From an uncultured Methanosarcinales archaeon (lineage in GTDB: Archaea > Nanobdellota > Nanobdellia > Woesearchaeales > UBA583), in contig CAYSDY010000003.1 of NCBI GenBank assembly GCA_964429995.1, forward strand, positions 49,241 to 113,240: a DNA stretch of 64,000 nt, read 5' to 3'. This document shows positions 16,951-58,920 of the stretch, in pieces. The notes beneath the pieces were generated by a model. That model was not told where the DNA came from. It saw only the letters and a program-made list of their open reading frames with translations, and made no database searches. The translations under genes and the position numbers were made by a program. Positions within the stretch are counted from its first letter, which is position 1, and each line of letters starts with the position of its first letter.

Positions 16951-17450
16951 AAAATACTACTGATAATTTGGTATTGTTGTTCTTTTTTGTTTTAGTTTTG
17001 GCTTTTTCTTTCATAAATCAGTATTATTATGATGTATCTTCATATTGTAATAATAATGAAGAATGTCTTTTGCAACTTTCTGAATCTTTAAATGATATAT
17101 CTTTTTGTGAATATGCAATAAGCTCTCAGGATTGTTATGAAGCAGGAGCATTAAAATTTAATAATCAAACATATTGCAGTTTATCTAAGAATGCTACAAC
17201 ATGTATGATAAAACTTGCTATGAAAAATGATGATTTGCAAATATGTAATTTAATAGATGTAGAACATAAAGATTATTGCATATATAATATAGCATATTCT
17301 AACAAAGAACCACAAATGTGTAATCATGCTAACAATTATGAATTTTGTATATATTCTTATGCAATAAATACAGCTAATATTTCGTTTTGTGATGTTTTAT
17401 CCGAAAAATATAAAAACAATTGTTACAGTAATATTAATAGGACATCGTAA
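16947..17450 (+). CDS. Cys-rich membrane-anchored/secreted repeat protein
   Basis: ATGA overlap with the rhomboid stop. An N-terminal hydrophobic anchor (LVLLFFFVLVLAFSFI) is followed by about 14 Cys in a repeating C-x(8-12)-C-Y/I..A pattern. Confidence 0.6.
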   Translation: MKNTTDNLVLLFFFVLVLAFSFINQYYYDVSSYCNNNEECLLQLSESLNDISFCEYAISSQDCYEAGALKFNNQTYCSLSKNATTCMIKLAMKNDDLQICNLIDVEHKDYCIYNIAYSNKEPQMCNHANNYEFCIYSYAINTANISFCDVLSEKYKNNCYSNINRTS

Positions 17451-31483: not shown

Positions 31484-32662
31484 ATGGATAATATAATTGA
31501 TCATAAAAACAGATCTTATGTAATTTTGCCTAATGATAATAAAATGCTTCATGTTAAATTTTCATCTCCTTATGTTTTTAGACATGATAAGGATATGGCT
31601 TTTCAATTGGATGAAATTGTTTCAAGAGGAATTGATACAAAAAGATCGGATGATGGTACAACAGTTTTTCGTGCAAAAAAGGATTCAGTAGGATTATATT
31701 GGTTTAAGAATGTGTTCTGTAGAGATGATATTGACCCGTTAAAAGTAGGTAATTATTCAGGTCATCAATTGGATGAATATCTTAGATCTGAAAGAGGAAT
31801 TGATTTAGAGCATGAACTGGTTTTAGAAACTGCTGATAAAATTAAATATGGAATGTCCCCAACAGATAGAAATAATGCTTATTTGCTTGGATCGGCTACA
31901 ATTGATTGGATTAAAGATAATATAGAATATATTTCTGTTCCTAATAGCTTAATTGATAATGTTGCATTTTTTATTAATTATTTAGGAAACAAAGCAAGTC
32001 CTTACAAAATATTGAGAAATAGTTTTAATTTGAACGATGGCTTGATAAGAATAATTGCATCAAATTGTACTTTAAAAAAGGGAATGAGTAGCAAAGAAAC
32101 TGCTAAGGATTTGATGGAACAAGCTAATCAGGTATCTAAGATTTTTCAACTTTTTTGGTTAACCGAAGAAATAACAGCCGGTAAAACCTTAGAAGAAAAA
32201 TCTGGAAAATGCGTAGGAATAGCTAGAACTTATGTAGCATTATTAAGAGCTATGGGAATACCTAGTAAAACAATTGGCGGATATTTTGGTGATAATTATG
32301 GAATATTTGGTGGTAATCATGTTTGGGCTACGTTATATATCCCAGAATATGGTTGGAAAGAGGTAGATCCTACTTTGGGTGAATATAAAGATTTCTCATT
32401 TGATTTTCACGCATATAGTTTTTATGATAAAGAAGAAGATAATTCGCATAATTTTGAATTTATTGGTACTGATGAATCTAACTTATTGGTAAATGATGTT
32501 ATTAGTTTGGTTAAATCTGAAAAAAGAAATAGAATTGCTAAGGCAAGAAACGGATTGAATTTTATTGATAGATACTTTAAAACTTCTAAGTTTAGAAAAA
32601 CAGAAAGTTTGGAAGCTGAATTGATGAAAGATGAGTTAGAATATTTAGAAAGATTTTGTTGA
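31484..32662 (+). CDS. transglutaminase-like cysteine protease domain protein
   Basis: GKCVGIARTYVALLRAMGIPSKTIGGY, GNHVWATLYIPEYGWKEVDPT is the Cys-His-Asp transglutaminase core. Confidence 0.8.
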   Translation: MDNIIDHKNRSYVILPNDNKMLHVKFSSPYVFRHDKDMAFQLDEIVSRGIDTKRSDDGTTVFRAKKDSVGLYWFKNVFCRDDIDPLKVGNYSGHQLDEYLRSERGIDLEHELVLETADKIKYGMSPTDRNNAYLLGSATIDWIKDNIEYISVPNSLIDNVAFFINYLGNKASPYKILRNSFNLNDGLIRIIASNCTLKKGMSSKETAKDLMEQANQVSKIFQLFWLTEEITAGKTLEEKSGKCVGIARTYVALLRAMGIPSKTIGGYFGDNYGIFGGNHVWATLYIPEYGWKEVDPTLGEYKDFSFDFHAYSFYDKEEDNSHNFEFIGTDESNLLVNDVISLVKSEKRNRIAKARNGLNFIDRYFKTSKFRKTESLEAELMKDELEYLERFC

Positions 32663-40929: not shown

Positions 40930-41165
40930 AAAACCCAAAAAATTCCCAGAAGAGTGTTATCAAAAAACTCTTATAAGCCCTAATTGAACAAGTTCAATTC
41001 CAAACTTATTCCTTTGAATACTCCACTGATCTGCGGTGGAACACTCAAAGGAATGATCAAAAATCGCAGTAAAAAAAATTGAGTGATAAATGTACATCAT
41101 TTATGGTGGGGATAACTCAAATTTTGTGATTTTTGTTTTATATGTTTTTTACAACCCTCTATTCT
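40918..41165 (+). repeat. MITE-like repeat, copy 2 (full length)
   Basis: Collinear with 37194-37438. It has an 18-bp hairpin (41009-41026 / 41036-41053). Confidence 0.8.
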
Positions 41166-41575
41166 AAATTGATGTATCTTTCCTTTTTTTTGTTATTATC
41201 TTTTGCTTTAACATCTTTTTCTTGTAAAACTCCAACCTTTAAACTGTTTTTTTTTGATGGACCTATTTGTCTTAATGTTGTTTTAAGCCCCATTTTTTTT
41301 TCGTTTTTGTATCTTTTTCGTTTTATAGTTTCTATTCTATCACTTATGGTGTTTACTAATTCATTTCTTTTTAAAACCACAAAAAGACCTACACCAAATG
41401 AAACTATTGATGTAATTATTATGTTTACTATGTCTGAAAAGAGAATAAGACATACAAAATATGTAAAAACTATTATAAATATACTTAAAAAATAAACTAA
41501 AAGATGTAATTTTTTGTAATGTTTATTATCTATTAAAAAATTTGCATTTTTGTTTCTTTTAGCTTTTTTGCTCAT
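41159..41575 (-). CDS. small basic membrane protein, hypothetical
   Basis: 138 aa with Lys-rich termini and two central hydrophobic helices. It is preferred over the overlapping Phe-rich plus-strand ORF 41133..41495, which looks like the antisense of a Lys-rich gene. Confidence 0.5.
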   Translation of the reverse strand: MSKKAKRNKNANFLIDNKHYKKLHLLVYFLSIFIIVFTYFVCLILFSDIVNIIITSIVSFGVGLFVVLKRNELVNTISDRIETIKRKRYKNEKKMGLKTTLRQIGPSKKNSLKVGVLQEKDVKAKDNNKKKERYINLE

Positions 41576-41652: not shown

Positions 41653-43284
41653 TTAGTTTATTGCATAACGAATGATTACAAGACCTGAACCACCCAAACC
41701 ACCTTTTGGATTTCCTGCTCCACCGCCACCACCAGTATTTGCTAAGCCATTAGTTCCTATTCCTGAATATGAACCACGTGTCTGACCAGCACCGCCACCA
41801 CCTTTACCTCCTAACCAATCACCATTTCCCTCTGGACCCCAATGACATGCTCCACTTCCACCGCCACCAAGCCAAATTTGCCCTTCAGAACTTTCTCCTA
41901 TTCCAAAAACATCTAATTTAAAATCAGTTTTGAAATTTAAATTATTTTTTGAATAAAGTCCATCCCCACCACGTCCAGGAGGACCCCATGCACCTGTTCC
42001 TGAATCTTTACCAGGCTCTCCAGCACCACCACCTCCTCCTCCTTGAACACCTAAACCATATGTATAATATCCACGACCTCCTTTATGACCTTGATCTGTT
42101 GTTATATTCTCTCCACCTGCTGTCCATCCAGTACTTGTTCTTCCATGACTTCCACCACCACCAGAAGCTCCAGGTCCTCCTTTGGCATTGATTGTATCAT
42201 AGAAAACATCTCTTACTCCACCATGACCACCACCAATTGCAGTTAAATCATCAAACATTGAGTTGAAACCATTTGTGCTTATAGTATCCCAACCTATTGC
42301 ACCCAACCCACCTGCTCCTACAATTATTGTTTTTGTGCCTATTGAAAGATTTTTAGAACCTGCCAATATTCCTCCAGCTCCGCCACCTGAACCAAATGCT
42401 CCAGCTCCTCCACCACCTGCAACTATTAAATATTCTACCTGTAAATCGTTTTTAAGAACTGTAATGTTATACTCTCCTACATTTTTAAAAATATGAAATC
42501 TATATAAGACATCTTCTATTAGTATATCCTGTGTTTCTCCTGTTCCTGAAACTAATTGTTCTAAACAATTTGTGTATGTATAACTACCATTTAGAACGCC
42601 ATTGTTACATGTTCGTGTCTCATTAATACATCCATCTTCATCAAAACTTTTAAAATAGAAAATCTGACTTGTATTATGTTCAAGTGTCTGACCTCCTATA
42701 CTACAACTGTTATATGTATTACATGAATGATATTTGTAAGTATCACTGTGTTCTAAAACTCCATTATCACAAAATAAAACTGAAACTTCATTGCTACAAT
42801 TAAATGAAAAAATGTTTTGGTAAAATGAATAATTTTCACCATGTTCTAAACTTATGCCATCAAGTGTACAACCATGTTGAATTGTTGGATATTTATTTAA
42901 TTCTTTTATGTATATATTCTTGCTTAATACCTGATTGTCTGATACCAAACTTACTGAGGGGTTTGATCGTGTTAAATTATTAAGGCATGTGCTTATGTCT
43001 ATCTCATTTATACCTGCTGTAAGATTTAAATCTAAAGAACATATATTATTGTCTAATTTTATGCTTTTTATTGTGGTGTTCTCATTGCTTTTTACATAGA
43101 GAACCGAGCCTGCTATGGTTTCTATTGTTAATGGATTGCTTTGCTTAATAGTTGACTCTATTTTGGTATTAAGATTGCTTTCATAGGAACTGTACCAAGA
43201 TAAAAAACTTGTAACTGAAATTGTTGTTACAACAAGTATTAAAATTACTGATATGATTGGACTGATACACAGTTTGGATTTCAT
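41653..43284 (-). CDS. archaeal type IV pilin-like N-terminus / Cys-repeat / glycine-rich-domain surface protein, paralog 1
   Basis: MKSKLC-ISPIISVILILVVTTISV is class III signal peptide-like and matches the A-V-S-P-V-I-G...hydrophobic pattern of archaeal pilins. There are two Cys modules (C.LDG..LEHG....C.....C.NGVL.......Y...C). The Gly-rich domain starts at EYLIVAGGGGAGAFGSGGGAGG and ends at GGSGLVIIRYAIN. The start is set at the ATG 26 nt downstream of the TATA box; an upstream in-frame ATG exists at 43299. Confidence 0.75.
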   Translation of the reverse strand: MKSKLCISPIISVILILVVTTISVTSFLSWYSSYESNLNTKIESTIKQSNPLTIETIAGSVLYVKSNENTTIKSIKLDNNICSLDLNLTAGINEIDISTCLNNLTRSNPSVSLVSDNQVLSKNIYIKELNKYPTIQHGCTLDGISLEHGENYSFYQNIFSFNCSNEVSVLFCDNGVLEHSDTYKYHSCNTYNSCSIGGQTLEHNTSQIFYFKSFDEDGCINETRTCNNGVLNGSYTYTNCLEQLVSGTGETQDILIEDVLYRFHIFKNVGEYNITVLKNDLQVEYLIVAGGGGAGAFGSGGGAGGILAGSKNLSIGTKTIIVGAGGLGAIGWDTISTNGFNSMFDDLTAIGGGHGGVRDVFYDTINAKGGPGASGGGGSHGRTSTGWTAGGENITTDQGHKGGRGYYTYGLGVQGGGGGGAGEPGKDSGTGAWGPPGRGGDGLYSKNNLNFKTDFKLDVFGIGESSEGQIWLGGGGSGACHWGPEGNGDWLGGKGGGGAGQTRGSYSGIGTNGLANTGGGGGAGNPKGGLGGSGLVIIRYAIN

Positions 43285-43389
43285 AAAATGTATTTGCATT
43301 ATGTGTTTTTATAATGTTTTGGTGTTTTGTTTAGTTACAAAAAAAATTAGTTTATTGCATAACGTATGATTACAACGCCTGAACCACCA
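42565..43389. repeat. 825-bp direct repeat, copy 1 (5' part of paralog 1 + promoter + last 14 codons of paralog 2)
   Basis: Collinear with 44241-45065 at a constant offset of 1676 nt. It is mostly identical, with differences clustered at 42969-43110. Confidence 0.85.
43306..43315 (-). promoter_or_regulatory. TATA box of pilin-like paralog 1
   Basis: The minus strand reads ATTATAAAAA, centred 26 nt upstream of the ATG at 43284. Confidence 0.5.
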
Positions 43390-44960
43390 TCGATTTCTCT
43401 TGGGCTATTTCCATAGCCACCACCACCGCCACCACCGCCTGTATTTGATTTTCCTGGTTCTGTGTTATGAGCATAACCTCCTGTTCCTCCTCTGCCACCA
43501 CCGCCAGATCCACCATAACCCCATTGATTTTGTGCTCCGTAATAGCCTCCACCAGGACCTCCGCCACCAGCAAACCAAACATCATTATTTATGACTTCTC
43601 CAATTGATAGTTCTATGGCTATGTCTTTGTTTATTATATTGGATATTTTGCCCTCACCTCCTCTTCCTAAAGGACCAGGACCTGTCCCTGCAGAACCTGC
43701 ACCACCACCAGCTCCTCCACCTGATGTTCCTCCATTACCATTACTTCCTGAATTTCCCTGCCCTGAAGTTCCTGAGCCTGGAGAACTTGATTGATGACCA
43801 GCTCCACCACCTGAACCGCCAGGTAAACCGTATCCGTATGGCCCATTGTAAGCATTTCCTCCATTACCACCACCATAAGCAATGATATGTTCTCCTATGT
43901 ATGAATTCTCTCCACTTGGAATTGGAGGTGATTGTAACATACCATATGTAGTCCCTCCTAAGCCGACCTTAACTTTAACAGTGCCAAGTGAAAGAGTGGT
44001 ATTTCCTTCTAAAAACCCACCTGCTCCTCCGCCACCACCGCCGCCACTGTTAACTCCTCCCCAGCCTCCCCAGTCTCCGCCGCCACCACCGCCGCCAACA
44101 ACCAAATATTCAATATCCAAATTGTTTTGCAAAACAGTAAAATCCTGTTCTTGTGGTGTAGTAAATAAGTGTATTCTGTATGTTATATCATTTATAGTAA
44201 GATCTCGAACATAATCACCACCTGTTGCTATATTCTCTACACAATTTGTATATGTATAACTACCATTTAGAACTCCATTATTACATGTTCGTGTCTCATT
44301 AATGCATCCATCTTCATCAAAACTTTTAAAATAGAAAATCTGACTTGTATTATGTTCAAGTGTCTGACCTCCTATACTACAACTGTTATATGTATTACAT
44401 GAATGATATTTGTAAGTATCACTGTGTTCTAAAACTCCATTATCACAAAATAAAACTGAAACTTCATTGCTACAATTAAATGAAAAAATGTTTTGGTAAA
44501 ATGAATAATTTTCACCATGTTCTAAACTTATGCCATCAAGTGTACAACCATGTTGAATTGTTGGATATTTATTTAATTCTTTTATGTATATATTCTTGCT
44601 TAATACCTGATTGTCTGATACCAAACTTACTGAGGGGTTTGATCTTGTTAGATTGTTAATACAGGTACTTATGTCTATCTCATTTATACCTGCTGTAAGA
44701 TTTAAATCTAAAGAACATATGTTATTATCTAATTTTATACTCTTTATTGTGGTATTCTCATTGCTTTTTACATATAGAACTGAACCTGCTATGGTTTCTA
44801 TTGTTAATGGATTGCTTTGCTTAATAGTTGACTCTATTTTGGTATTAAGATTGCTTTCATAGGAACTGTACCAAGATAAAAAACTTGTAACTGAAATTGT
44901 TGTTACAACAAGTATTAAAATTACTGATATGATTGGACTGATACACAGTTTGGATTTCAT
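43347..44960 (-). CDS. archaeal type IV pilin-like N-terminus / Cys-repeat / glycine-rich-domain surface protein, paralog 2
   Basis: The N-terminal roughly 240 aa are identical to paralog 1 except for one Leu/Ile change. It has a different Gly-rich C-terminal domain (EYLVVGGGGGGGDWGGWGG ... GGSGVVIIRYAIN). Confidence 0.75.
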   Translation of the reverse strand: MKSKLCISPIISVILILVVTTISVTSFLSWYSSYESNLNTKIESTIKQSNPLTIETIAGSVLYVKSNENTTIKSIKLDNNICSLDLNLTAGINEIDISTCINNLTRSNPSVSLVSDNQVLSKNIYIKELNKYPTIQHGCTLDGISLEHGENYSFYQNIFSFNCSNEVSVLFCDNGVLEHSDTYKYHSCNTYNSCSIGGQTLEHNTSQIFYFKSFDEDGCINETRTCNNGVLNGSYTYTNCVENIATGGDYVRDLTINDITYRIHLFTTPQEQDFTVLQNNLDIEYLVVGGGGGGGDWGGWGGVNSGGGGGGGAGGFLEGNTTLSLGTVKVKVGLGGTTYGMLQSPPIPSGENSYIGEHIIAYGGGNGGNAYNGPYGYGLPGGSGGGAGHQSSSPGSGTSGQGNSGSNGNGGTSGGGAGGGAGSAGTGPGPLGRGGEGKISNIINKDIAIELSIGEVINNDVWFAGGGGPGGGYYGAQNQWGYGGSGGGGRGGTGGYAHNTEPGKSNTGGGGGGGGYGNSPREIDGGSGVVIIRYAIN

Positions 44961-45065
44961 AAAATGTATTTGCATTATGTGTTTTTATAATGTTTTGGTG
45001 TTTTGTTTAGTTACAAAAAAAATTAGTTTATTGCATAACGTATGATTACAACGCCTGAACCACCT
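44241..45065. repeat. 825-bp direct repeat, copy 2
   Basis: See 42565-43389. It includes an identical 47-nt intergenic/promoter segment (44976-45022 = 43300-43346). Confidence 0.85.
44982..44991 (-). promoter_or_regulatory. TATA box of pilin-like paralog 2
   Basis: Identical sequence and spacing as at 43306-43315. Confidence 0.5.
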
Positions 45066-46271
45066 AAACCGCCTGCATTGTTATCTACATATTGATATGT
45101 GGTTGTGCCTCTTTCTGCTCCGCCACCGCCACTACCACCAGAAAATCCAAAATTATCATAGAAATGATCCACCACCGCCACCACCATAAGCTATTATTGA
45201 TCCTATTGATGAATCATTACCATTATTGCCTGGTTTAGAACGCCACATATAGTTATCATGATTTCCACCTGCTCCGCCTGTGCCACCTAAACCTACTGAT
45301 ATGCTTACATTTCCTTTACTAAGAACTGTGTTTGATTCTATAAAACCGCCTGCTCCTCCGCCTGCTCCTGTAAAGCACCCGCCACCACCGCCACCACCTG
45401 CAACAATTAAATAATCTATTTCTAAATTATCTTTAACAACTGTAAATGTACTATTGCCTGTTGTGCTAAAAATATGTGCACGATAATTTGTTTCACCAAT
45501 GCTAAAATCTTCTATATAATCTCCACCGAATGCTAACTCTGTACTACAACTTGTATAATTATAACTACCATTTAAAACTCCATTATTACATACTCTTGTT
45601 TCATTAACACATCCTGATACTGAAAATTCGCTTAGATAAAACAACATATTATTACCATTTAGAACTGTAGTCATATTGTCAATATAACAATCAGATGTAC
45701 ATGATCTATAAATGTATGAATCATTACCACTCAATATTCCATTGTTACATGTTCTTATGATAGAATCGCATGACCCATTAGTGCCATTTAGAGAATTGTA
45801 AAAAAAATCTGAAAGTCCATGTGTAACAACAAAACCATTTAAGACACAATTACTTTTTAAAGTATTTTTAACATAAATTTTTTTTTCTAATACTTCTTTG
45901 TCTGTTATTACGACAATTTCTGGATTTAAAGAGGTGATGTTTTTTAAACATTCATTTAAATCTATTTCAAAAATTGCTGTTGAATATGTTGCTTGGTCAA
46001 TATTACAGTTAATACCATCTATTTGAATTTGCTTAATAGTAACATTTGAACCACTATTTTTAATGTATAATGTGTTGCCAATAACTGTTTCTATTGTTGG
46101 CTTTGATTTTATTAATGAATTTTGTTCTGTAATGCTTAATATGTTTGAATAATAATCTGTAAACCAAATATTAAAAATAGTAACTGATAGTACCACAACA
46201 AAAACAAGTAGCATTAAGGCAATTATGTTAGAAATAGATTTGTTGTTATTTTTAATAGGTCTTTTTTTCAT
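45023..46271 (-). pseudogene. pilin-like / Cys-repeat / glycine-rich paralog 3, frameshifted near the 3' end
   Basis: The main frame 45156..46271 ends in AYGGGGGGSFL*. The family-typical C-terminus DHFYDNFGFSGGSGGGG...GGLGGSGVVIIRYAIN* is encoded at 45023-45169 in a different frame. The shift falls in the GGT/GGC run around 45165-45190. Confidence 0.6.
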
Positions 46272-46360
46272 GTCTTAAGTATTGTTGTATGACTTTATTA
46301 TAAAAGCTTTTTTATTACTTGATTAAACAATAAAAAATATGTTTTATGATAAATATCTTT

Positions 46361-47767
46361 TTACATAAGCATTACAATTGCAAATCCTATGAATAATGCA
46401 GGGATAAATGCAAGACCATCTTTTACAAGAATCTTTTTTAAATGTTCATGTTCTTGTGCTAACTCTTTTATTCTTTTTAACTGATCTTCATCTATTCCAA
46501 GCTTGAAATCCTCTTTGTGATATATTATCTTATTGTTTATTTTTATGTCTTCAACAACCCAATCACCAAGAGAAATCTTATATATATCTTTTTTTGATAC
46601 AAACATATGTTTCTCTATTATTTTTGCAATTTTGATAAAAATATATATCAAATTTAATGTTATTAATATTGCAAATTTTGAATTTAGGAATGAAACAAAT
46701 ACAACTATTGATGAAAAAATTAACATTATAAGTTTCTCTTTTAGACAAAATGTTATTCTTATATGCTTTATGTTGATAATATAATGAAAGATCAACATTA
46801 ATATTCCTATTATTCCTCCTGCTATAAATGAAAAAAACATAAACAATAGCACAAATGATAGTATATGTATCTTTAAAATGTCTTGTGTTAAAAGTATAAA
46901 TGAATATGAAATAAAGTTTATTATGATTAATATGCTATATGGTAATATACATCTTTTTTTAACAAAAACTTCATCTAATGAATTAGAATGCATTTTTATA
47001 TTATCAACATCTTCTTTGGTTATAATTGAAGGTGCATCTTTTTGATTTACAATAATTTTATCACCTGATTTTATGACTCCTTCTATTATATCTTCTTGTT
47101 TAATGTTTGATGTTTTAATTTTAATAATGTAGTATACTGATGAGAATATATCTTCTTTTGAAAAAAAAATTATGCTAAATGCCAACAATCCGTTTATTAC
47201 AAAGAACATACGAAAATTCATGTACATAAAAGATGTAATAAATAAAAAAAATATCATGAATAACAATCCTGTATTCTTCATATCTTGTTTCTTTTTAACA
47301 TAAAAAACTGTTAAAACAATCATTACAAAAATTGATGAAAAATTAATTATGTTTAAAATATATGTTGCTGTATCAACGTTTGATGATACAAAATATGTAA
47401 ATTTTTCTAAAATGTTGTGCAGTATAATGTAATAATTTTTATTATTATAATTTGTAAAATTTAACATGTAATATGATGCACCTGCAAATCCTATCAAAAA
47501 CTTTGCATCACCACCTCCCCAAATACCTAAATAATACAAAATACTGCCCAATATGAATCCTATGCACATCCCAAAAAATACTGAAGAGATAGGAAAAATA
47601 TTCATATTGTATACAGAATCAAGAATTCCTGCAGTAAGGATGCAAAACAAAAATGAAAAGTTGATGTAGTCATATACCTCTCTTTTTTTTATATCTTCAA
47701 TTGATGCAATTATAAAAACCATAATTACTGTAAATAAAACTATATATCCTAAAACCATTTTATTCAA
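46361..47767 (-). CDS. A24-family prepilin/preflagellin peptidase (PibD/FlaK/EppA-like), enlarged
   Basis: The first catalytic Asp context is IIASIEDIKKREVYDY and the second is GIWGGGDAKFLIGFAG (GxGD). It is 468 aa with extra TM helices, two soluble inserts and a C-terminal LAFIPALFIGFAI. Confidence 0.75.
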   Translation of the reverse strand: MNKMVLGYIVLFTVIMVFIIASIEDIKKREVYDYINFSFLFCILTAGILDSVYNMNIFPISSVFFGMCIGFILGSILYYLGIWGGGDAKFLIGFAGASYYMLNFTNYNNKNYYIILHNILEKFTYFVSSNVDTATYILNIINFSSIFVMIVLTVFYVKKKQDMKNTGLLFMIFFLFITSFMYMNFRMFFVINGLLAFSIIFFSKEDIFSSVYYIIKIKTSNIKQEDIIEGVIKSGDKIIVNQKDAPSIITKEDVDNIKMHSNSLDEVFVKKRCILPYSILIIINFISYSFILLTQDILKIHILSFVLLFMFFSFIAGGIIGILMLIFHYIINIKHIRITFCLKEKLIMLIFSSIVVFVSFLNSKFAILITLNLIYIFIKIAKIIEKHMFVSKKDIYKISLGDWVVEDIKINNKIIYHKEDFKLGIDEDQLKRIKELAQEHEHLKKILVKDGLAFIPALFIGFAIVMLM

Positions 47768-47990
47768 GATATATGTTGTATATTGAGTATATCATTAAAA
47801 ATAATGATGCTACTGTGGATGTGTAATAGCCAACTAATGGATAAAAAAAACCAAATGTCACTAAAATGTTTAGTATGCTTGTTATGTTTAATATAAACAA
47901 GATAAAACCAACACCCAAAAAGAAATGAGCTAATGATTTTCTGCTCCAAAATGTCTCTTGATACTTTTCTGAACTGTTTTTGTCTTTCAT
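47760..47990 (-). CDS. small membrane protein, hypothetical
   Basis: 76 aa with two hydrophobic helices. Its stop overlaps the peptidase start by 8 nt. Confidence 0.45.
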   Translation of the reverse strand: MKDKNSSEKYQETFWSRKSLAHFFLGVGFILFILNITSILNILVTFGFFYPLVGYYTSTVASLFLMIYSIYNIYLE

Positions 47991-50372: not shown

Positions 50373-50942
50373 ATGAAACTAAAAGTGTTAATTTTGCTAA
50401 TATTTGCTCTGACCATTTTTTCAGGTTGTGAGTATGATAAGAATCTTGCTCATAAAGATGTTTATAATGAGAAAATGATATCAATAAACCAATATTTTAA
50501 TGAAACAATACAAAATTATAATCATACAATAATAAATATAACAAGTGTATGTTTGAGTGGAGATTGTTCAGAATATAAGGATAATACTCAATATCCTGTT
50601 TCTCAAATTAAACAGTGTTATTTTTGTAATAGTGAAATTTTAGGAAAGGATATGTTACATTTGTACTCTTCAAAATATAGCTCTGGAAGTAGTGATGTTA
50701 GTTTTGGATGTCTTAAAAAATTTACTGGAGATGATATAGAAGGATTAAGAATAATTGAGAAAACAAATGATAAAATAGTATTTAGAGGATTTTTAACACA
50801 TGAATTCTTACAAAAAAGCATAATTTGCGATAGAAACAGTGATCCTGAATGTGATGATCAGGTATATGGAAAATGTTCTGGTTTGGATTACTCAATTGAA
50901 TTTAAAAAGGAAGTTGAATTTACAGTAGAAAGGAATAATTGA
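50373..50942 (+). CDS. putative lipoprotein / secreted Cys-rich protein
   Basis: The signal peptide has a lipobox-like LTIFSGC. The mature part contains 11 Cys. Confidence 0.55.
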   Translation: MKLKVLILLIFALTIFSGCEYDKNLAHKDVYNEKMISINQYFNETIQNYNHTIINITSVCLSGDCSEYKDNTQYPVSQIKQCYFCNSEILGKDMLHLYSSKYSSGSSDVSFGCLKKFTGDDIEGLRIIEKTNDKIVFRGFLTHEFLQKSIICDRNSDPECDDQVYGKCSGLDYSIEFKKEVEFTVERNN

Positions 50943-51114: not shown

Positions 51115-51840
51115 CTATAAATCCCTAATAATTTCACAATCAAGTATATTTTTTCGCATTTCCCAATCTGGCATTAAAGCGGTCAATAAATTGAAAAAAT
51201 CTTTATTATGGTTATCATATTTAAAATGAATTAACTCATGTAATACAACATAATCAATAGCAAATTTTGGAGCTTCAATTAAATCTGAATTCAATAAAAT
51301 TTCATTTTTTGATTTATTACAAGAACCCCATCTTGATTTTAACTTTCTAGGTTTTATTGTTGGTTTTTCAATATCATACTTCTTAATTAATTTATACATT
51401 CTATTTAATGATTGATTAAATAAAATTTCTTCTCGCACATGATACCAATCTTTTATTAAATCCTCTTTACTTTTAATATCATTTTTATTTTTTATGTTTA
51501 AATAAATAAATCCTCTAAAATATTTTACACCTTCTTCATTTTCATCTTCTATAACTTTTAATCTATATTGTTTTCCCAAATATCTAAAAGTCTCACCAGA
51601 AATATATTCTTTTTTCGTTTTAGGAGTTGGTCTATTTTTTTTAAAATAATTAATATTTTTTTTAATCCATTTTCTTTTTTTTAATACAAATTCTTTAACT
51701 TTTTCTTCTTGAAGTTTAGAAGGTGCTGAAACAAGAATAGTTAAATCTGGTTTGACATTTATATTAATATTTTTAACATCTTTTCTAATCAAAGTAAATT
51801 CTATACCATCAATTTCTAGGTTTATACTATCTTCTTTCAT
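51115..51840 (-). CDS. YgjP-like (DUF45/SprT-like) zinc metallopeptidase
   Basis: HEXXH is in VVLHELIHFKY. ATGA overlap with the hsdR stop. This is a common partner of type I R-M operons. Confidence 0.8.
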   Translation of the reverse strand: MKEDSINLEIDGIEFTLIRKDVKNININVKPDLTILVSAPSKLQEEKVKEFVLKKRKWIKKNINYFKKNRPTPKTKKEYISGETFRYLGKQYRLKVIEDENEEGVKYFRGFIYLNIKNKNDIKSKEDLIKDWYHVREEILFNQSLNRMYKLIKKYDIEKPTIKPRKLKSRWGSCNKSKNEILLNSDLIEAPKFAIDYVVLHELIHFKYDNHNKDFFNLLTALMPDWEMRKNILDCEIIRDL

Positions 51841-54800
51841 TTTGCAAATCTTTTAATTATCATTGATTGAATTGTTTCAATAATTTTATCAATATTTTCA
51901 TAATCTAAATTTAATTTTTTATCTTCTTTATAATCAAATAATAAATCCTCAATCTCTTGGGCTATTTTGTTCATAATGTCAATATTATTTTGAAAATCAA
52001 TTTTAATATTTTTATCAATTATATTTTTAATTTTTATCGAAATATCAGCAATAGATTCATTATCTTCAAAATATTGATTAATTTGAAAAATTATATTTTT
52101 AAGAATTCCATAATAACTTTGAGAAATTATATCATTTTTAATTGAATTTGGATATTTAGTGTCAGTTTGTCCAGATTGATATTTTTTCATAATATCTTCC
52201 ATTCTATCAAAGTAATCAGATTCAGAGATTCTTTTATTTTTATAATCTTGAATTACATTATCTACTAATTTAGAAAATTTCTCATAATATGCGGGATTTT
52301 CTTCAAAATTTTGTGAAATACTCCTAGTTATTCTTGTTCTAATTGCATCTGCTTTTGCTCTTTTTGATCCTAATCTTTCAAGTTCTTCTGTAAAGTTTTT
52401 CTTATCCATAATATCCACAGGTTTTGTTATTTTGATAACTTCTTCTGCAACTATGTAATTATCCATTAAATTTCTCATTTGTGGTTCATATTCTTTGTAA
52501 TTTATATTATCTGAATATCTAATTTTAACTGATTTTCTAAGTTCAACAAAGAAATTTAAGTCTTGTTTAAATTTTTGCATTTCTTTTTCATCTATTGCAT
52601 TATAAATTTTTTCACTCTCTCTTGCAATAGATAAATTTTTACTAAATGATGCTAATATCTCATAAAAAAATTCTCTTGTTTCTTGTTTTTCAAGTAATAT
52701 TTCATATTCTTCAATATCAGATTTATTTTTTATTGATATGAATATATTTAATAGATTTGTGTGTGATTCTCTTAGATCTCCAATAACTTTAATAATATCT
52801 AAAACAGCACCTTTAATATCACCTGGGTCAAAATTTTCTAAACCTGCACCTGAATATAAATCCATAGCCTCATCTAGTCTTTGAAGTAATCCTCTATAAT
52901 CTACAATAAATCCATATTCTTTATTATCAAATAATCTGTTTACTCTTGCTATTGCTTGAAGAAGATTGTGTTCTTTTAGTTCTTTATCAATATATAAAAT
53001 AGAAGCTCTTGGAGCATCAAAACCAGTTAGAAGTTTATCAACTACAATAAGAATATCTATTGAATCGCCATAAACAAACTCATTTTTAATAGTATCTAAA
53101 TAACTTTCTTCTGTTCCATATTTACTCATCATAGTTTGCCAGAATTTTAAGATTTTACTCTTAGTTTCATTATCAACTTCCTCGTGGTCTTCTCTTTCAT
53201 CAGGACCAGAGATTATAACTTGTGTATCTAACTCTTTTAATTCATCAAATGCCTCTTTATATCTGATTGCATCAATTTTAGAGTTAGTTGCGAGCATTCC
53301 TTTGAAATAAATACCATGATTTTCTTTTCTTGTTAAAAAATCAGAGGTTATATCAAATGCAATAAGATTAATTCTTTGATTTGAAGATGCAATTTTCTCA
53401 AATTTGGCCCATTTTTGTTTAACATCTCTTTTTTGTTCAGGAGTTATATTTCGTGTAATAATATCTAATCTTAAATCTATTGCCTTCTTATTTACAGTTT
53501 GATCAATCATTCTACCTTCATATAATAAAGGAACAATAGCCTTATCTTCAACAGCATCATTAATTGTATATTTATGGATCAATTTACCAAATTTAATTAG
53601 GGTATTTTTTTCCCTTTTTAACAAAGGAGTTCCTGTAAAACCTAAATAACAAGCATTTGGAAATGTGTTTTTCATCTTTATATGAAATTCCCCATATTGG
53701 GTTCTGTGACTTTCATCGATTAAAATAAAAATATCTTTTGAATTATCAACAGATTTTTTCTTAAAAGATTTTTCAAATTTATTAATAATTGTAGTTACAA
53801 TATCTGCATTATTATCTTTTATTAATTCTATTAATTTCTCTCCTGTTGTAGCCCTACTTGCCTTTAATCTAGTATGATTAAATGTAGAGTGAATTTGTTT
53901 ATCCAAATCAATCCTATCTGTTACTACAATTACTTTTGGATGTTTTGCTGAAATCTTTGATAAAATATATTTTGCAAACATAACCATAGTTAATGATTTC
54001 CCAGAACCTTGTGTGTGCCAAATTACACCGGATTGTCTATTTCCAATTTCATCTCTTTCATTTATTGTTTTAATTGTCTCTTTTATTGCAAAATATTGTT
54101 GATATCTGGCTATTTTTTTAATATCTTTATCAAAAACAATAAAATATTTAATAAGTTCAAAAAATCTCTTTGGTTCAAATAAAGAAATTAAATTCTCATC
54201 TTGAATTGTTGGTTTTCTAGTTGTTATATGTTTAGAAATTTGAGTTTGTAAAAATTTCTCATCTTCTTCTCTCCAATGTGACCAGAATTTTTCAGGAGTT
54301 GAAGCTGTTGCATATTTTGTATCATTCTTATTTGTAGAAACTAAAATTTGAGTAAATTTGAATAATTGAGGAATATAATCTTTTCCTTGGTTTCTAATCA
54401 TTTGAGATATTCCTTGTTTTATATCTTCTGAGACTCTTTTACATTCTATTACTCCAAGTGGAATTCCATTTACAAATAAAACTATATCTGGCCGAGCTGT
54501 TTTATTAGAATTTTGTCTTTCAACAGCAAATTCAGGAACTGCATGAAATACATTATTTTGAGGGTTTTCAAAATCAATATAATTTAAATTAAAAGATCTT
54601 TTTGTTTTATCAGGTAAAATTTCTTGGTAGGATTTTCCTAGCATTAAATAATCATATATTTTTTCATTTGTTTTAACTAGACCATTTGTTAATGGTTCAT
54701 CTAAACCATCAATAGCCTGATTAATGTTTTTTTCTGAAAATTTAAAAGTTTCTTTTTTGTAAGTATAGGAGTTTAATTTTTCTAATTGTTGTTTTAAAAC

Positions 54801-54959
54801 TGGTTTTAATATTACATTATATAAACTTCCTCTCATAATTTCTGCATCTTCTGGTTTTAGAATATTGTAACCTAATTTTTCTAATAATTCTAATGCTGGA
54901 ATTTGAGAAGAGTTTTCTTCATTATATTTACTTGGACTTGGCATTTTTTGATATATCAT
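51837..54959 (-). CDS. hsdR: type I restriction enzyme R subunit
   Basis: N-terminal HsdR_N nuclease region (ARPDIVLFVNGIPLGVIECK), helicase motif I HTQGSGKS and DEAH-box ILIDESHRTQ. 1040 aa. Confidence 0.95.
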   Translation of the reverse strand: MIYQKMPSPSKYNEENSSQIPALELLEKLGYNILKPEDAEIMRGSLYNVILKPVLKQQLEKLNSYTYKKETFKFSEKNINQAIDGLDEPLTNGLVKTNEKIYDYLMLGKSYQEILPDKTKRSFNLNYIDFENPQNNVFHAVPEFAVERQNSNKTARPDIVLFVNGIPLGVIECKRVSEDIKQGISQMIRNQGKDYIPQLFKFTQILVSTNKNDTKYATASTPEKFWSHWREEDEKFLQTQISKHITTRKPTIQDENLISLFEPKRFFELIKYFIVFDKDIKKIARYQQYFAIKETIKTINERDEIGNRQSGVIWHTQGSGKSLTMVMFAKYILSKISAKHPKVIVVTDRIDLDKQIHSTFNHTRLKASRATTGEKLIELIKDNNADIVTTIINKFEKSFKKKSVDNSKDIFILIDESHRTQYGEFHIKMKNTFPNACYLGFTGTPLLKREKNTLIKFGKLIHKYTINDAVEDKAIVPLLYEGRMIDQTVNKKAIDLRLDIITRNITPEQKRDVKQKWAKFEKIASSNQRINLIAFDITSDFLTRKENHGIYFKGMLATNSKIDAIRYKEAFDELKELDTQVIISGPDEREDHEEVDNETKSKILKFWQTMMSKYGTEESYLDTIKNEFVYGDSIDILIVVDKLLTGFDAPRASILYIDKELKEHNLLQAIARVNRLFDNKEYGFIVDYRGLLQRLDEAMDLYSGAGLENFDPGDIKGAVLDIIKVIGDLRESHTNLLNIFISIKNKSDIEEYEILLEKQETREFFYEILASFSKNLSIARESEKIYNAIDEKEMQKFKQDLNFFVELRKSVKIRYSDNINYKEYEPQMRNLMDNYIVAEEVIKITKPVDIMDKKNFTEELERLGSKRAKADAIRTRITRSISQNFEENPAYYEKFSKLVDNVIQDYKNKRISESDYFDRMEDIMKKYQSGQTDTKYPNSIKNDIISQSYYGILKNIIFQINQYFEDNESIADISIKIKNIIDKNIKIDFQNNIDIMNKIAQEIEDLLFDYKEDKKLNLDYENIDKIIETIQSMIIKRFAK

Positions 54960-54960
54960 T

Positions 54961-55815
54961 TTAGTTTAACCTCCTTTTAATTTCTTCTGTAAAATCTTCT
55001 AATTTTGAAAAAGCTGTCCATTTTTTCCCAATATCTTTTAAAGATGCACCTATATGATAAACTTCATCATCTATTATTAAAAACCTATCGTGTGAGTCTT
55101 TAAATTCTTTTATTTGAAGATTGTTATATTGTTTGTTAAATTTATTTATATCTTCTCTTAATTCTTTTGTTATATTTTTAGTATAAATTGTAACTTTTAC
55201 TTGATTTTCTTTCTTCTTAAATAAATTAAGAGTTCTTTCATCAATATAATTATCAATTAATTTTATTTCATTTTTTGCTTTTCTAATTAAATCTGTTATG
55301 AAGATGTATGAGTCAAAGAATTGATTATTGAAGAAAATTCCTGTTTTAGGTTCATTTGTTTCTAAGAGATTGAATATTTTATTGAAATTGTTATCATGTT
55401 CTAATAATTTTGTTTCAATTATGTTTAATCTTTGGAATGTATCTTTATTTGTTAAAAGGAATTGTCTCATTTGAATAAATGCTCTCATAATCTGAATATT
55501 TACTTCAATAGCTCTTTTAGATGTTAAAATACTTGAAATATTTGCAACTCCTTGTTCAGTAAAGGCATAAGGCAAACTACCACCTAGATGTTGTTTTGAA
55601 GGTATCACAGATTGTGATACCATAATGTCTACTTCATTTTCGGTTAATTGAAACATAAAATCCTCTGGAAATCTTTCAATATTTCTTTTAATTGCCTGTT
55701 TTAAAGATCTTGTTTCAGTTTCATAAAAGTCTGATAAATCCCTATCTAAAATTACTTGAACTCCTCTTAGAGTATGGATTTTAGGTTTTATTACTTCAAT
55801 AATATTATTATTCAT
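54961..55815 (-). CDS. ORF6N-domain DNA-binding protein with C-terminal PLD-like HDRFLIID module
   Basis: LRGVQVILDRDLSDFYETETRSLKQAIKRNIERFPEDFMFQLTENE and GGSLPYAFTEQGVANISSIL form the ORF6N domain. The C-terminus has SHDRFLIIDDEVYHIGASLKDIGKKW. Confidence 0.8.
   Translation of the reverse strand: MNNNIIEVIKPKIHTLRGVQVILDRDLSDFYETETRSLKQAIKRNIERFPEDFMFQLTENEVDIMVSQSVIPSKQHLGGSLPYAFTEQGVANISSILTSKRAIEVNIQIMRAFIQMRQFLLTNKDTFQRLNIIETKLLEHDNNFNKIFNLLETNEPKTGIFFNNQFFDSYIFITDLIRKAKNEIKLIDNYIDERTLNLFKKKENQVKVTIYTKNITKELREDINKFNKQYNNLQIKEFKDSHDRFLIIDDEVYHIGASLKDIGKKWTAFSKLEDFTEEIKRRLN
54969..54974 (-). promoter_or_regulatory. Shine-Dalgarno GGAGGT for hsdR
   Basis: GGAGGT on the minus strand, 9 nt before the ATG at 54959. 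Confidence 0.55.
55601..55621. repeat. palindrome GGTATCACA-GAT-TGTGATACC
   Basis: Perfect 9-bp arms inside the ORF6N gene (encoding SQSVIPSK). A second copy is at 56603-56623. Confidence 0.8.
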
Positions 55816-55823
55816 TTCAACAA

Positions 55824-55829
55824 ACCTCC
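55824..55829 (-). promoter_or_regulatory. Shine-Dalgarno GGAGGT for the ORF6N gene
   Basis: 8 nt before the ATG at 55815. Confidence 0.55.
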
Positions 55830-55888
55830 TTTTGAGGTAGTCGCAATTTGTGACCAGTTATTTGAAGTCACAATTTGAGATGTCAAAT

Positions 55889-55905
55889 TCATTGTTCTAC
55901 CTCCA
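55889..55905. repeat. 17-nt direct repeat TCATTGTTCTACCTCCA (copy 1)
   Basis: Identical to 56557-56573. Each copy supplies the stop codon, the last four codons (EVEQ) and a GGAGGT. Confidence 0.9.
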
Positions 55906-56560
55906 GTAAAATATTTTTAATATTTCTTTCAACTTCTGACATCATTATTTTTAAACTAGTTTTGTATATTTTTAGCCTTACTTCGATGGTAGGAATATTA
56001 AATTTACTTCTTATTTCTTCAGGAAGCCTATACATTACATAGAATTCATCATTTTCTTTATTAACTAATGATTCAATTTCTTCTATTGAATTAGTAAAAA
56101 ATATTGGGATCTCGATTTCTTTTATAGGTCCAAATTTAGTTTTCATTAAACCAATTCCTTTTATATCTCTATAAGACAGATCAAATTTTTTATCTGTTTC
56201 TTTTGTGTGACCATATAACTCATTTTCAAGATATATTTTAGTTTGTTTATCTTTAATTAAAGGAATTAATTTTAGAATTGATTTTCTCAAATAATTATGA
56301 GATTTTTCAAGAATCAGATCTTCTATCTCTTCAATCACATCTTTATTTCCCTTGGATTTGGACATTTTAATTTCTTTTTCTAAATCCTTTTTTAATTCAA
56401 TAGGATTACTTCCAATATTAATGATATTTTTTTGATTATTATTAAGATTTATTTTGTTAACATTTTGATTTACAATATTAATTTTATAAATTAAATATAA
56501 TGATAATCCAAATCCTAATCCTCCTAAAACTTCTAAAAACAACTTAATCTCTTCTATCAT
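55889..56560 (-). CDS. membrane-anchored protein with AbiTii-like C-terminal region (tentative abortive-infection-type accessory gene)
   Basis: The N-terminal TM helix is VLGGLGFGLSLYLIY. LRKSILKLIPLIKDKQTKIYLENELYGH...SYRDIKG resembles, from memory, the AbiTii pattern (..W...EL.GY....P.YR). The gene lies between hsdS and hsdR. Confidence 0.4.
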   Translation of the reverse strand: MIEEIKLFLEVLGGLGFGLSLYLIYKINIVNQNVNKINLNNNQKNIINIGSNPIELKKDLEKEIKMSKSKGNKDVIEEIEDLILEKSHNYLRKSILKLIPLIKDKQTKIYLENELYGHTKETDKKFDLSYRDIKGIGLMKTKFGPIKEIEIPIFFTNSIEEIESLVNKENDEFYVMYRLPEEIRSKFNIPTIEVRLKIYKTSLKIMMSEVERNIKNILLEVEQ

Positions 56561-56573
56561 TGTTCTACCTCCA
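56557..56573. repeat. 17-nt direct repeat TCATTGTTCTACCTCCA (copy 2)
   Basis: See 55889-55905. The copies are spaced 668 nt apart and bracket exactly the 223-aa gene. Confidence 0.9.
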
Positions 56574-57879
56574 TTTTAAGACCGCAATTTATGACCTTAG
56601 AAGGTATCACATTTTGTGATACCCTAACTATTCCAGTTAGAAGAAGTTGCATTAATGATTTTTTTTGTAATTTTAATTGATTAATCTCTTCTTGAAGTAA
56701 GGAGATTTCTTTATCTTGATTTTGAAGTGTATTTGCTATTTTTTCTTGTTCAGGTAAGGAGGGTAGGAGTATTTTCATCATTGACATATCTTTAAATGCT
56801 AAACTATCTCTAACACTTCCAGCTACAAAACTTTCAATTCTTCCTTTAAACTGATGTGTATCTAACCAATACCTAAAATAAATTGGATTTAAGTTATCTT
56901 TTGTTTTAAATATAACATACATTGGACTTAATATTCCATTTTCAAATGAAGTTAATAAATCTATTGACCCCACATTAATTCTTGAAGGATTATATGCAAA
57001 TTCACCTCTTGAAACAATTTTATAATTTGATATATCTTTACTTGCAATTTCTTTTCCAAAATATTCATCTTGATTTACAAAACCTTTTTTATTAGTTACA
57101 CTTAAAACTCTTTTTACTTGATTTTCTTTATTTCTATTTAAAATCTCTTTTAATAACTTCTTCAACTTAACTTCTTTCCATTCATCATTAAACTCTTTAA
57201 ATCTAACTTTTCCACTCAATAGATTTTGCATTAGTGATTTCTTTAAATTCTTTTTCTCTTCAAGTAATTTTTCTTTTAATTCAATTAAATTGTCTTGGTT
57301 TGAAAGGATTTCTGCTATGACGGTTTGTTCAGGTAAAGATGGAGTTGGTAACCTCATAGAAGAATACTCCTCAGAATTAATTCCTGGTTGACCACCTCTC
57401 ATAGACATTATTTTGACCCATTTATCATATTGATAAGTTTCAGTATATAGTTTAATGAAATAAGGATTAGTTACATCATGATTTATTTTAAATCTAATTA
57501 AAAAACCTGCAAAATATAAATCTCCATCATTTTTAGAGTATAAATATGTTTTCCCTGTTGTTCCACCAGTTCTAGCAAATAATAAGTCATTTTCTTTTAA
57601 TAAATATTTTTTTTTATCTTCTAATTTTACAGACATTAAATTATTTTTAATAATTCTTCCATTTTCATCAATATCTGTAATTCTAAGATAAGTAGGTAAA
57701 TCTTTTGAGTATGGCAATGCAGATTCTCCAGCACCATACTGTCCTTTATCTTTACAAACATTCCCAAATTTTTCTACTTTCCAATCATTTGGAATTATTC
57801 CAATTTTAGTTTGTTTGTAACCTTCTGGAACTTCTCCTTTTTGAATCATTTCAAGTCTTTGTTTTATTTCTTGGTTCAT
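56557..57879 (-). CDS. hsdS: type I restriction-modification specificity subunit (two target-recognition domains)
   Basis: The conserved spacers LPTPSLPEQTVIAEIL and LLPSLPEQEKIANTL each follow a TRD. The C-terminal LLLTGIVRV is followed by a 20-aa tail of foreign origin. Confidence 0.9.
   Translation of the reverse strand: MNQEIKQRLEMIQKGEVPEGYKQTKIGIIPNDWKVEKFGNVCKDKGQYGAGESALPYSKDLPTYLRITDIDENGRIIKNNLMSVKLEDKKKYLLKENDLLFARTGGTTGKTYLYSKNDGDLYFAGFLIRFKINHDVTNPYFIKLYTETYQYDKWVKIMSMRGGQPGINSEEYSSMRLPTPSLPEQTVIAEILSNQDNLIELKEKLLEEKKNLKKSLMQNLLSGKVRFKEFNDEWKEVKLKKLLKEILNRNKENQVKRVLSVTNKKGFVNQDEYFGKEIASKDISNYKIVSRGEFAYNPSRINVGSIDLLTSFENGILSPMYVIFKTKDNLNPIYFRYWLDTHQFKGRIESFVAGSVRDSLAFKDMSMMKILLPSLPEQEKIANTLQNQDKEISLLQEEINQLKLQKKSLMQLLLTGIVRVSQNVIPSKVINCGLKMEVEQ
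56567..56572 (-). promoter_or_regulatory. Shine-Dalgarno GGAGGT for the 223-aa gene
   Basis: 6 nt before the ATG at 56560. Confidence 0.55.
56603..56623. repeat. palindrome GGTATCACA-TTT-TGTGATACC
   Basis: Perfect 9-bp arms in the 3' tail of hsdS (encoding SQNVIPSK). It is the counterpart of 55601-55621. Confidence 0.8.
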
Positions 57880-58004
57880 TTTAACACCACTCTTTCAATT
57901 AAATTGAACTTGTAAAATATTTGTCCCACAAGTTGTGGCACTTTTTCAAATTCATGGATCATTTTGTTGATATCAACGAAATGATAGATATTAAATAATT
58001 TCAT
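57876..58004 (-). CDS. 42-aa micro-ORF coupled on both sides by ATGA overlaps
   Basis: Its ATG overlaps the KilA-N stop and its TGA overlaps the hsdS ATG. Translation is MKLFNIYHFVDINKMIHEFEKVPQLVGQIFYKFNLIERVVLK. No homology recognised. Confidence 0.3.
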   Translation of the reverse strand: MKLFNIYHFVDINKMIHEFEKVPQLVGQIFYKFNLIERVVLK

Positions 58005-58816: not shown

Positions 58817-58822
58817 TTAAAT

Positions 58823-58828
58823 ACCTCC
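58823..58828 (-). promoter_or_regulatory. Shine-Dalgarno GGAGGT for the KilA-N gene
   Basis: 6 nt before the ATG at 58816. Confidence 0.55.
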
Positions 58829-58920
58829 TGAACCTTTTTGTTGAAGTCAACAATATGGTTTGAGTAAAAAACAATTCAATAATAAAACATTCTTTAAATT
58901 CCATTCTTTTCAAACCTCTT

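Follow-up and report, generated by a model that had tools for sequence, protein, structure and literature searches.

What kind of surface structure is encoded by tandem archaeal genes that join a pilin-like N-terminus to a C-terminal domain of the type carried by phage tail fibres? The question is raised by a 64,000-nt stretch of contig CAYSDY010000003.1 (positions 49,241 to 113,240; GenBank assembly GCA_964429995.1) from an uncultured archaeon placed in the Woesearchaeales. In this stretch, referred to below as the window, five consecutive minus-strand open reading frames (ORFs) fill 41.6-48.0 kb. Three of them are same-strand paralogs, here termed g1, g2 and g3, which have one layout: a class III signal peptide and pilin module (∼135 aa), two 49-aa modules with four cysteines each, and a C-terminal Gly_rich_2 domain (PF21722). 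The other two encode an A24 peptidase and a small protein with two transmembrane (TM) segments. To our knowledge, little is understood of how DPANN archaea and other ultrasmall episymbionts locate their hosts and stay attached to them, and hardly any of these organisms are in culture. From the evidence presented here it is fairly likely that g1 and g2 are modular archaeal type IV pilins bearing a variable, phage-like receptor-binding tip on a disulfide-rich stalk, and that g3 is a decaying copy.

Results

The C-terminal domain of g1-g3 is a phage-type tumour necrosis factor (TNF)-like/glycine-rich (TG) domain, in agreement with a preliminary description of this locus, which had likened the region to phage tail-fibre domains. 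It occupies residues 246-548 (41656-42564, minus strand) of g1, a protein of 548 aa encoded at 41653-43299 (minus), and positions 43350-44240 (minus) of g2, a protein of 542 aa encoded at 43347-44975 (minus). Against PF21722, for which the cut-off is 24.3 bits, g1 scored 64.9 bits over model positions 3-225 of 226 and g2 65.2 bits (E∼1e-17); g3 scored 52.2 bits over model positions 2-98 only. The PHROG family phrog_2295 was matched at E=1.6e-52, sequence similarity to the tail fibre gp24 of cyanophage Pam3 was marginal (E∼0.02), and none of g1-g3 matched ALK_LTK_GRD (PF12810). In the AlphaFold2 model of g1, the predicted local distance difference test score (pLDDT) was 82 overall and 94-98 for residues 250-548 of the TG domain. 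A Foldseek search with this model returned the tail tip of mycobacteriophage Bxb1 (E=4e-4) and the TG domains of ALK/LTK (E∼1e-2, Foldseek probability 0.5-0.6), with poor global TM-scores for the full-length model owing to its multi-domain geometry. The structure search of BFVD returned 147 viral models at E≤1e-3, the best at E=4.9e-21, with target TM-scores of up to 0.81 and a root mean square deviation of 2.9 Å. Nearly all of the named viral matches shown were glycine-rich domain-containing proteins, and they came from tailed phages, cyanophages, the haloarchaeal virus HF2 and prasinoviruses. Glycine accounts for 31-35% of the C-terminal part of the paralogs. The conserved columns are mostly scaffold glycines and flanking strands (YRxHxF, EYLIVAGGGG, GGSGVVIIRY), with substitutions and indels between them. 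The TG domain of Pam3 gp24 is a TNF-like sandwich resembling those of S16 gp38 and the ALK ligand-binding domain, and has a receptor-binding role (PMC9608196).

At the opposite end of the proteins, the N-terminal motif was read directly as MKSKLC/ISPIISVILILVVTTISV and ...NNNKS/ISNIIALMLLVFVVVLSV. The family profile A5 matched the archaeal type IV pilus of Pyrobaculum calidifontis (8fk7; PMC10334743) at E=1e-7 and the Ignicoccus adhesion filament Iho670 at E=0.06-0.1, and profile A1 alone matched 8fk7 at E=2.5e-4. The deposited Iho670 chains begin with VSPVIAT, and their first residue aligns in register with ISPVVAT; cleavage is therefore placed, by homology, just before ISP. Two stand-alone members of the family (128-132 aa) exceeded the cut-off of NCBIfam TIGR02537, and several were weakly like UpsA. 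AlphaFold2 predicted, for the pilin module, a 38-residue helix (residues 14-52) followed by a seven-strand beta-sandwich (pLDDT 90) that contains two invariant cysteines, C87 and C105; the sole full-length Foldseek match to this module was the Pyrobaculum arsenaticum pilus 6w8u, and this was weak (E=0.08). The module corresponds to residues 1-135 of g1 (42895-43299, minus) and to 44571-44975 (minus) in g2. Taken together, the 8fk7 match, the Iho670 register and the TIGR02537 scores of the stand-alone members bear out the earlier reading of the N-terminus as an archaeal class III signal peptide and pilin head, and the module is predicted to be a type IV pilin module homologous to archaeal pilins. 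The true start of g1 and g2 is probably Met6 (MKSKLC/ISP...; position 43284 in g1), because the homologues all start there. The residue at -1 was always small across the family (C, A, S or G), the cysteine of g1 and g2 being unusual. A lipoprotein reading of this cysteine was rejected, since the hydrophobic stretch comes after it and not before.

The region between pilin module and TG domain (residues 144-245 of g1, 42565-42870; 44241-44546 in g2; both minus) consists of two copies of a 49-aa unit with four cysteines and the consensus CLFNGQTIAHGSSVTAYQSSSVAFGQSCVSETRTCNNGVLSGSYTYASC. No match to this unit was found in Pfam families or PDB sequences; weak resemblances to Sushi_2 and fibronectin type I were seen, and AlphaFold2 confidence was low in the region. 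A hidden Markov model built from 138 bacterial repeats only had g1-g3 as its sole matches among the 254 window ORFs, twice per protein and at E-values from 1e-17 to 1e-19, indicating that the Cys repeat modules noted in the preliminary description are real. A genome scan located the unit mainly in lipoprotein-like proteins of Bdellovibrionota, in up to 15 tandem copies, and also in Saccharibacteria, Parcubacteria, Peribacteria, Woesearchaeota and Nanoarchaeota, with the core R-x-C-x-N-G-x-L-x-G (L004; L009 9845-12337; L026 8981-10768; L033; L047 8012-10750). Most carriers are predatory bacteria or belong to lineages usually taken to be episymbiotic; the four-Cys module, hitherto unannotated, is common to bacteria and archaea of these presumed ways of life. 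Three bacterial proteins join the Cys module with a TG domain, and a Bdellovibrionia protein has three of the modules immediately before its TG domain, an order also seen in g1-g3; thus the Cys stalk and TG domain together behave as a transferable unit.

Comparison of the paralogs revealed a constant half and a variable half. Over codons 1-245, g1 and g2 differ by 19 synonymous and 1 non-synonymous substitutions, clustered in two patches; from codon 246, which lies just past the last cysteine of module 2 and is the start of the TG domain, their divergence is complete, and the glycine-rich domains are 45% identical. When the window paralogs and those of a related population are taken together, most share 91-100% identity in the pilin module but only 30-57% in the TG domain, much of it glycine. 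This pattern indicates purifying selection and patchy gene conversion on the pilin and stalk half (the handle) and a putative recombination boundary where the two domains meet. The related population has a tandem array of at least five paralogs (448, 499, 509, 473 and 494 aa) and a cut copy. Contigs from several independent assemblies (L001, L065-L068, L074-L075; related population) end inside the paralog array, which fits either assembly breaks caused by near-identical 5′ halves or strain-level variation of the array.

The constant handle and variable tip fit a repertoire of the kind that the preliminary description had in mind when it raised the idea of surface variation. A programmed switch of the phase- or cassette-variable kind (e.g. 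pilE/pilS-type) or a diversity-generating retroelement was considered and rejected, since the features required are lacking in the window. No silent cassettes, simple-sequence tract or invertible promoter were found there, repeat analysis of the window yielding paralog homology only. Likewise, no reverse transcriptase or recombinase domains were found in the window ORFs scanned with Pfam, a set of 43 (40 of them ≥150 aa; 12 window ORFs of that size lay outside the scan). The one route to variation that is supported, and then as a putative one, is homologous recombination between full copies.

The third paralog, g3, is a 371-aa ORF (45156-46271, minus) whose pilin module is 38% identical to that of g1. 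Behind the pilin module and two Cys modules its glycine-rich domain is cut short, the frame stopping at 45156 after the first ∼100 residues of that domain. The preliminary description had given all three paralogs the same in-frame ending (...VIIRYAIN), and for g3 this has to be corrected. Its ending, GGLGGSGVVIIRYAIN*, is readable only in another frame at 45023-45175 (minus), a 3′ remnant that was recovered by repeat analysis (repeat family D7) and encodes ...FSGGSGGGGAERGTTTYQYVDNNAGGLGGSGVVIIRYAIN*, and compared with g1 and g2 the domain lacks ∼145 aa. Thus g3 is both frameshifted and internally deleted. Since the identical 371-aa product occurs on four contigs, g3 is probably a truly degenerate, decaying copy and not the result of a one-off sequencing error.

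A T-run and a TATA-like box precede each of g1-g3, so that no copy shares its promoter-like box or its start codon with another. The intergenic unit 5′ of g1 (43300-43346, minus) contains a T8 run, which is terminator-like, followed by the TATA-like TTATAAAAA; the 47-nt unit 5′ of g2 (44976-45022, minus) is 100% identical to it. The three genes are accordingly laid out as putative separate archaeal transcription units with a terminator and a promoter between them. A scan for sigma-70 promoters and intrinsic terminators was uninformative, as expected in an archaeon.

The pilin module is widespread. A profile of the first ∼135 residues of the proteins matched 1043 clusters (50%-identity representatives) at E≤1e-3, 119 of them at E≤1e-30. 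Among the 150 matches listed, the module was N-terminal in all, in proteins of 115-1023 aa. Most members carry the textbook head KKA/ISPVVATALLLVVAVVAVVGFQxWF, and the short ones (115-140 aa) consist of the module alone and resemble ordinary pilins. In the C-terminal parts of 111 members, Pfam identified Laminin_G_3 (15), DUF285 (9), Lcl_C (9), Gly_rich_2 (7) and SBBP beta-propeller repeats (7), and more rarely ALK_LTK_GRD, Fibrinogen_C, FGE-sulfatase and sialidase-type lectin domains (3 each). The pilin module is therefore a carrier for many binding domains, and an archaeal counterpart of the bacterial modular pilins. The related population's genome also has the module fused to a Fibrinogen_C-like domain (L074 9688-11046) and to an FGE-sulfatase domain (L066 439-1911, apparently frameshifted). 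None of the 111 relatives matched Pfam Pilin_N (PF07790) at E≤1e-3; the Pfam model therefore evidently covers this pilin subfamily poorly, and the large archaeal repertoire of modular pilins that escapes it is poorly annotated.

The combination of a pilin head with a glycine-rich domain, which had earlier seemed without precedent, turned out not to be unique. Fusions with Gly_rich_2 or ALK_LTK_GRD recur within the same family, and Gly_rich_2 is also borne by a second archaeal head type (QGxIEYL; P0064, P0108) and by bacterial N-methyl heads (P0038, P0071). Since several head types are involved, the combination must have arisen repeatedly. A search of the literature found no description of PF21722/Gly_rich_2 carried by pilins.

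Directly upstream of the array lies a gene for a 468-aa A24 (class III signal/prepilin) peptidase (46361-47767, minus). It scored 36.9 bits against Peptidase_A24 (PF01478; cut-off 26.5). Its two Asp motifs, D25 (IEDIKKREV) and D87 (GGGD), were examined in 19 homologues, in all of which D25 and G85-G86-D87 were invariant, and both motifs align to FlaK (3s0x). The earlier identification of both catalytic Asp contexts is thereby upheld. The enzyme was rejected as FlaK itself, scoring 33.9 against the NCBIfam FlaK equivalog, which has a cut-off of 330. It had also been described as enlarged, but proteins of 445-477 aa in ∼65 clusters align with it almost end to end (32-44% identity), and ∼460 aa is a normal size in archaea of the Woesearchaeota/Nanoarchaeota type. 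The closest named relatives come from 'Candidatus Woesearchaeota' and 'Nanoarchaeota' metagenome-assembled genomes, and on this basis the organism is most likely an archaeon of the DPANN type.

The start of the peptidase gene is overlapped by a gene for a 76-aa two-TM protein (47760-47990, minus). Proteins of this kind (76-93 aa) are encoded just upstream of the peptidase in other genomes too (L069 6702-6941; L071 6711-6992), and they are 53-54% identical across lineages (E 3e-28 and 2e-19) where the peptidase is only ∼42% identical. The small protein may be an unrecognised partner subunit of the ∼460-aa form of the peptidase.

The neighbours of the array include FEN1/XPG, an RFC-like AAA protein and HerA (archaeal-type replication and repair), aminoacyl-tRNA synthetases, ABC transporters and a type I restriction-modification cluster. 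G+C content is ∼25% in the window and climbs to 33-38% across 42-46 kb, values that Gly codons (GGN) would give. Directly 3′ of g1, a 138-aa ORF (41159-41575, minus) with a basic N-terminus is predicted to contain two TM segments and gave no Pfam or PHROG match. The restriction-modification cluster (51115-60441, minus) encodes a YgjP-like metallopeptidase, HsdR (1040 aa), HsdS and HsdM, and is interrupted by an ORF6N-domain gene (54961-55815), a KilA-N-domain gene (58001-58816) and a 223-aa ORF with no Pfam match; a YgjP-like/HsdR/HsdS group is also found near an orthologous peptidase in another locus (L073). Two small Cys-rich proteins with N-terminal hydrophobic segments (16947-17450, plus strand; 50373-50942, plus strand, the latter with no Pfam match) are possibly secreted or lipid-anchored. 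A rhomboid-family protease with an N-terminal extension (15895-16950, plus) and a transglutaminase-core protein (31484-32662, plus) are potential envelope-processing enzymes. Larger ORFs at 13336-14943, 17457-18776 and 8957-9982 had no Pfam match.

Discussion

On the interpretation favoured here, g1 and g2 would be exported with a class III signal peptide and cut just before ISP/ISN by an A24 peptidase, the neighbouring 468-aa enzyme being the obvious candidate. The mature protein would have a hydrophobic alpha-helix of ∼38 residues and a small disulfide-bonded beta-sandwich, and would either assemble into a filament resembling a type IV pilus, perhaps sparsely, or form a cap at its tip; the machinery that builds the filament would be encoded elsewhere. 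The two four-Cys modules would form a stalk bearing the TG domain, in which variable loops would be presented on a conserved glycine scaffold, a fold used by Pam3 gp24, S16 gp38 and ALK/LTK to bind ligands. Purifying selection and gene conversion would hold the pilin and stalk half constant while the tips are very different; the cell may therefore have a small set of binding specificities at its disposal, which would most plausibly serve in attaching it to surfaces or other cells, and perhaps to a host if the organism is an episymbiont. A constant handle, a hypervariable tip, tandem copies and a sharp recombination boundary form a pattern typical of molecules under diversifying pressure. This makes g1 and g2 concrete, testable candidates for determinants of host-recognition specificity in DPANN archaea. 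If they do have such a binding role, TG sequences could predict host range, as tail-fibre tips do for phages. The pilin family and the Cys module should in any case be useful for annotating surface proteomes in metagenomes.

Several observations weigh against the interpretation of g1 and g2 as modular pilins. Pilin_N matched g1 and g2 at 17.0 bits, below its cut-off of 25.2, and g3 was without a match. The model matched 10 of 12 family members, but only at E≥0.01 and below threshold for every one of them. Because of these sub-threshold scores, the pilin assignment rests on the other evidence described above. Foldseek searches of the PDB with the pilin module gave nothing at E≤1e-3, returning generic immunoglobulin (Ig)-like sandwiches besides the weak 6w8u match; in the AlphaFold2 model the Cys-module stalk has a pLDDT of 42-72; and one of the three copies, g3, is degenerate. 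The remaining points concern gene context. A type IV pilus ATPase or platform domain was absent from the 43 Pfam-scanned window ORFs, as the preliminary description had also observed of the window, and a short major pilin of the g1-g3 family was not found in the 64-kb window. In relatives, the modular pilin genes are scattered and lie outside pilus operons. The preliminary description had further looked to a conserved linkage between such genes and the peptidase, and this expectation failed. Pilin genes adjoin the peptidase in none of three orthologous loci, which have unrelated genes downstream; genes for the pilin module or Cys module were found in none of 80 metagenomic loci with peptidase relatives (630 kb in total); and the array of the related population lies elsewhere, flanked at one end by a VCA0040-like gene and leucyl-tRNA synthetase (LeuRS) and at the opposite end by OGG. 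The 468-aa enzyme is a natural candidate for processing the pilin heads, but its adjacency to them looks incidental.

Much of this context would also be compatible with a class III signal peptide that served only for export and anchoring, so that after cleavage the proteins stayed in the membrane or in a short bindosome-like assembly and acted as adhesins or receptors without a long pilus. We regard this as the main rival explanation, though an unlikely one. Neither pilus machinery nor a major pilin was found nearby in the window, the pilin-module genes of relatives are scattered, and a C-terminal load of ∼400 aa would be bulky to accommodate in a packed filament. Class III signal peptides also occur on sugar-binding proteins of Sulfolobus, a further point for anchoring. 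Archaeal type IV filament systems, moreover, include a bindosome that is not a pilus (bioRxiv 10.64898/2026.04.22.720090). Against this, the same module also occurs alone in proteins of 115-140 aa that resemble ordinary polymerising pilins, the head is homologous to those of filament-forming pilins, and in bacteria, modular pilins of comparable size do become part of pili (PMC8179133). The lack of nearby pilus genes is compatible with both the pilus and the membrane-anchored reading.

The high glycine content (31-35%) invites another explanation, in which g1-g3 would be structural glycine-rich parts of the envelope, such as matrix or S-layer accessories, and the divergence between paralogs would be neutral drift of low-complexity sequence with no specific ligand. 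It would accord with the absence of a known ligand and with the decay already under way in one copy. It is nevertheless improbable, given that the TG fold is predicted at very high confidence (pLDDT 94-98) and that the conserved columns are scaffold glycines and beta-strands with indels between them, as in phage receptor-binding tips (PMC9608196); in addition, lectin-type and adhesion-type domains take the equivalent position in other members of the pilin family. It is very improbable indeed that g1-g3 are tail-fibre remnants of an integrated virus or other mobile element and not cellular adhesins: the TG domain does occur overwhelmingly in viral proteins (BFVD, PHROGs), G+C is above that of the surroundings and KilA-N and ORF6N genes lie 7-11 kb away, but a cellular pilin head is present on every copy, capsid, portal, terminase and integrase domains were not found in the scanned flanks, the family patterns gave no match when viral contigs were scanned, the rise in G+C is accounted for by Gly codons, and the KilA-N and ORF6N genes lie inside the restriction-modification cluster.

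Returning to g1 and g2 as modular pilins, a broader proposal may be offered tentatively, as possible rather than likely. The array could be a recombining host-recognition repertoire of phage-type receptor-binding domains on the type IV pili of a probably episymbiotic ultrasmall archaeon, in which new specificities arise by the swapping of Cys-stalk and TG cassettes between paralogs. The cassette would then have been exchanged over the long term among phages, candidate phyla radiation (CPR) bacteria, predatory Bdellovibrionota and DPANN archaea, which have in common the need to latch onto other cells.

The bacterial modular type IV pilins are among the closest known systems. More than 1,200 such proteins with 264 architectures have been described, including PilB (vWA module) and PilC (lectin module) of Streptococcus sanguinis, which act as adhesins (Raynaud et al. 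2021, PMC8179133). In both these pilins and g1-g3, a class III signal peptide leads into a small pilin module at the N-terminus, to which a binding module is joined through a linker; the proposed display at the tip and role as adhesins are also shared. The g1-g3 family differs in that its head is archaeal (KKA/ISPVVAT...) and not N-methyl, and in that the carrier is predicted to be a helix with an Ig-like sandwich. That survey was limited to proteins with the IPR012902 motif and reports bacteria only (PMC8179133); tandem arrays whose handle stays constant while the tips vary are not part of its description. Archaeal pilins and adhesion filaments (the flagellar-like pilus 8fk7 of P. calidifontis; Iho670, 5kyh/3j1r; UpsA) have a homologous N-terminal helix, a similar cleavage-site context and the layout of helix and beta-sandwich that is predicted for the pilin module, yet they are filament subunits of 130-300 aa without grafted Cys modules or a TG domain.

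The tips of phage tail fibres (Pam3 gp24, 7yfw/7ypx; Salmonella phage S16 gp38; Bxb1, 9d93) share the C-terminal domain family and fold, a glycine-rich scaffold with variable loops proposed to bind receptors. They are, however, subunits of trimeric fibres on a baseplate, and Pam3 gp24 requires a dedicated chaperone, whereas in g1-g3, which belong to a cellular genome, a pilin head and Cys modules precede the TG domain and no chaperone gene is evident. The TG ligand-binding domain of ALK/LTK (7nx0, 7nx3, 7ls0) is of the same supradomain type by Foldseek, and three members of the pilin family match ALK_LTK_GRD; unlike g1-g3, it belongs to a eukaryotic signalling receptor with cytokine-like ligands. 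In the Kil Tad pilus of Myxococcus xanthus (Herrou et al. 2025, PMC12075869), several alternative pilin-borne variable domains are likewise proposed to stand at the pilus tip and to determine target-cell recognition. Kil tips are multi-protein complexes of minor pilins in a bacterial Tad system tied to an apparatus like the type III secretion system (T3SS), whereas each of g1-g3 is a single polypeptide with another binding fold. Modular pilins, the TG domain and A24 peptidases are thus already known; what is new in this locus is the archaeal carrier family, the tandem array of TG domains on pilins with its constant handle and variable tips, and a Cys module that crosses the divide between bacteria and archaea.

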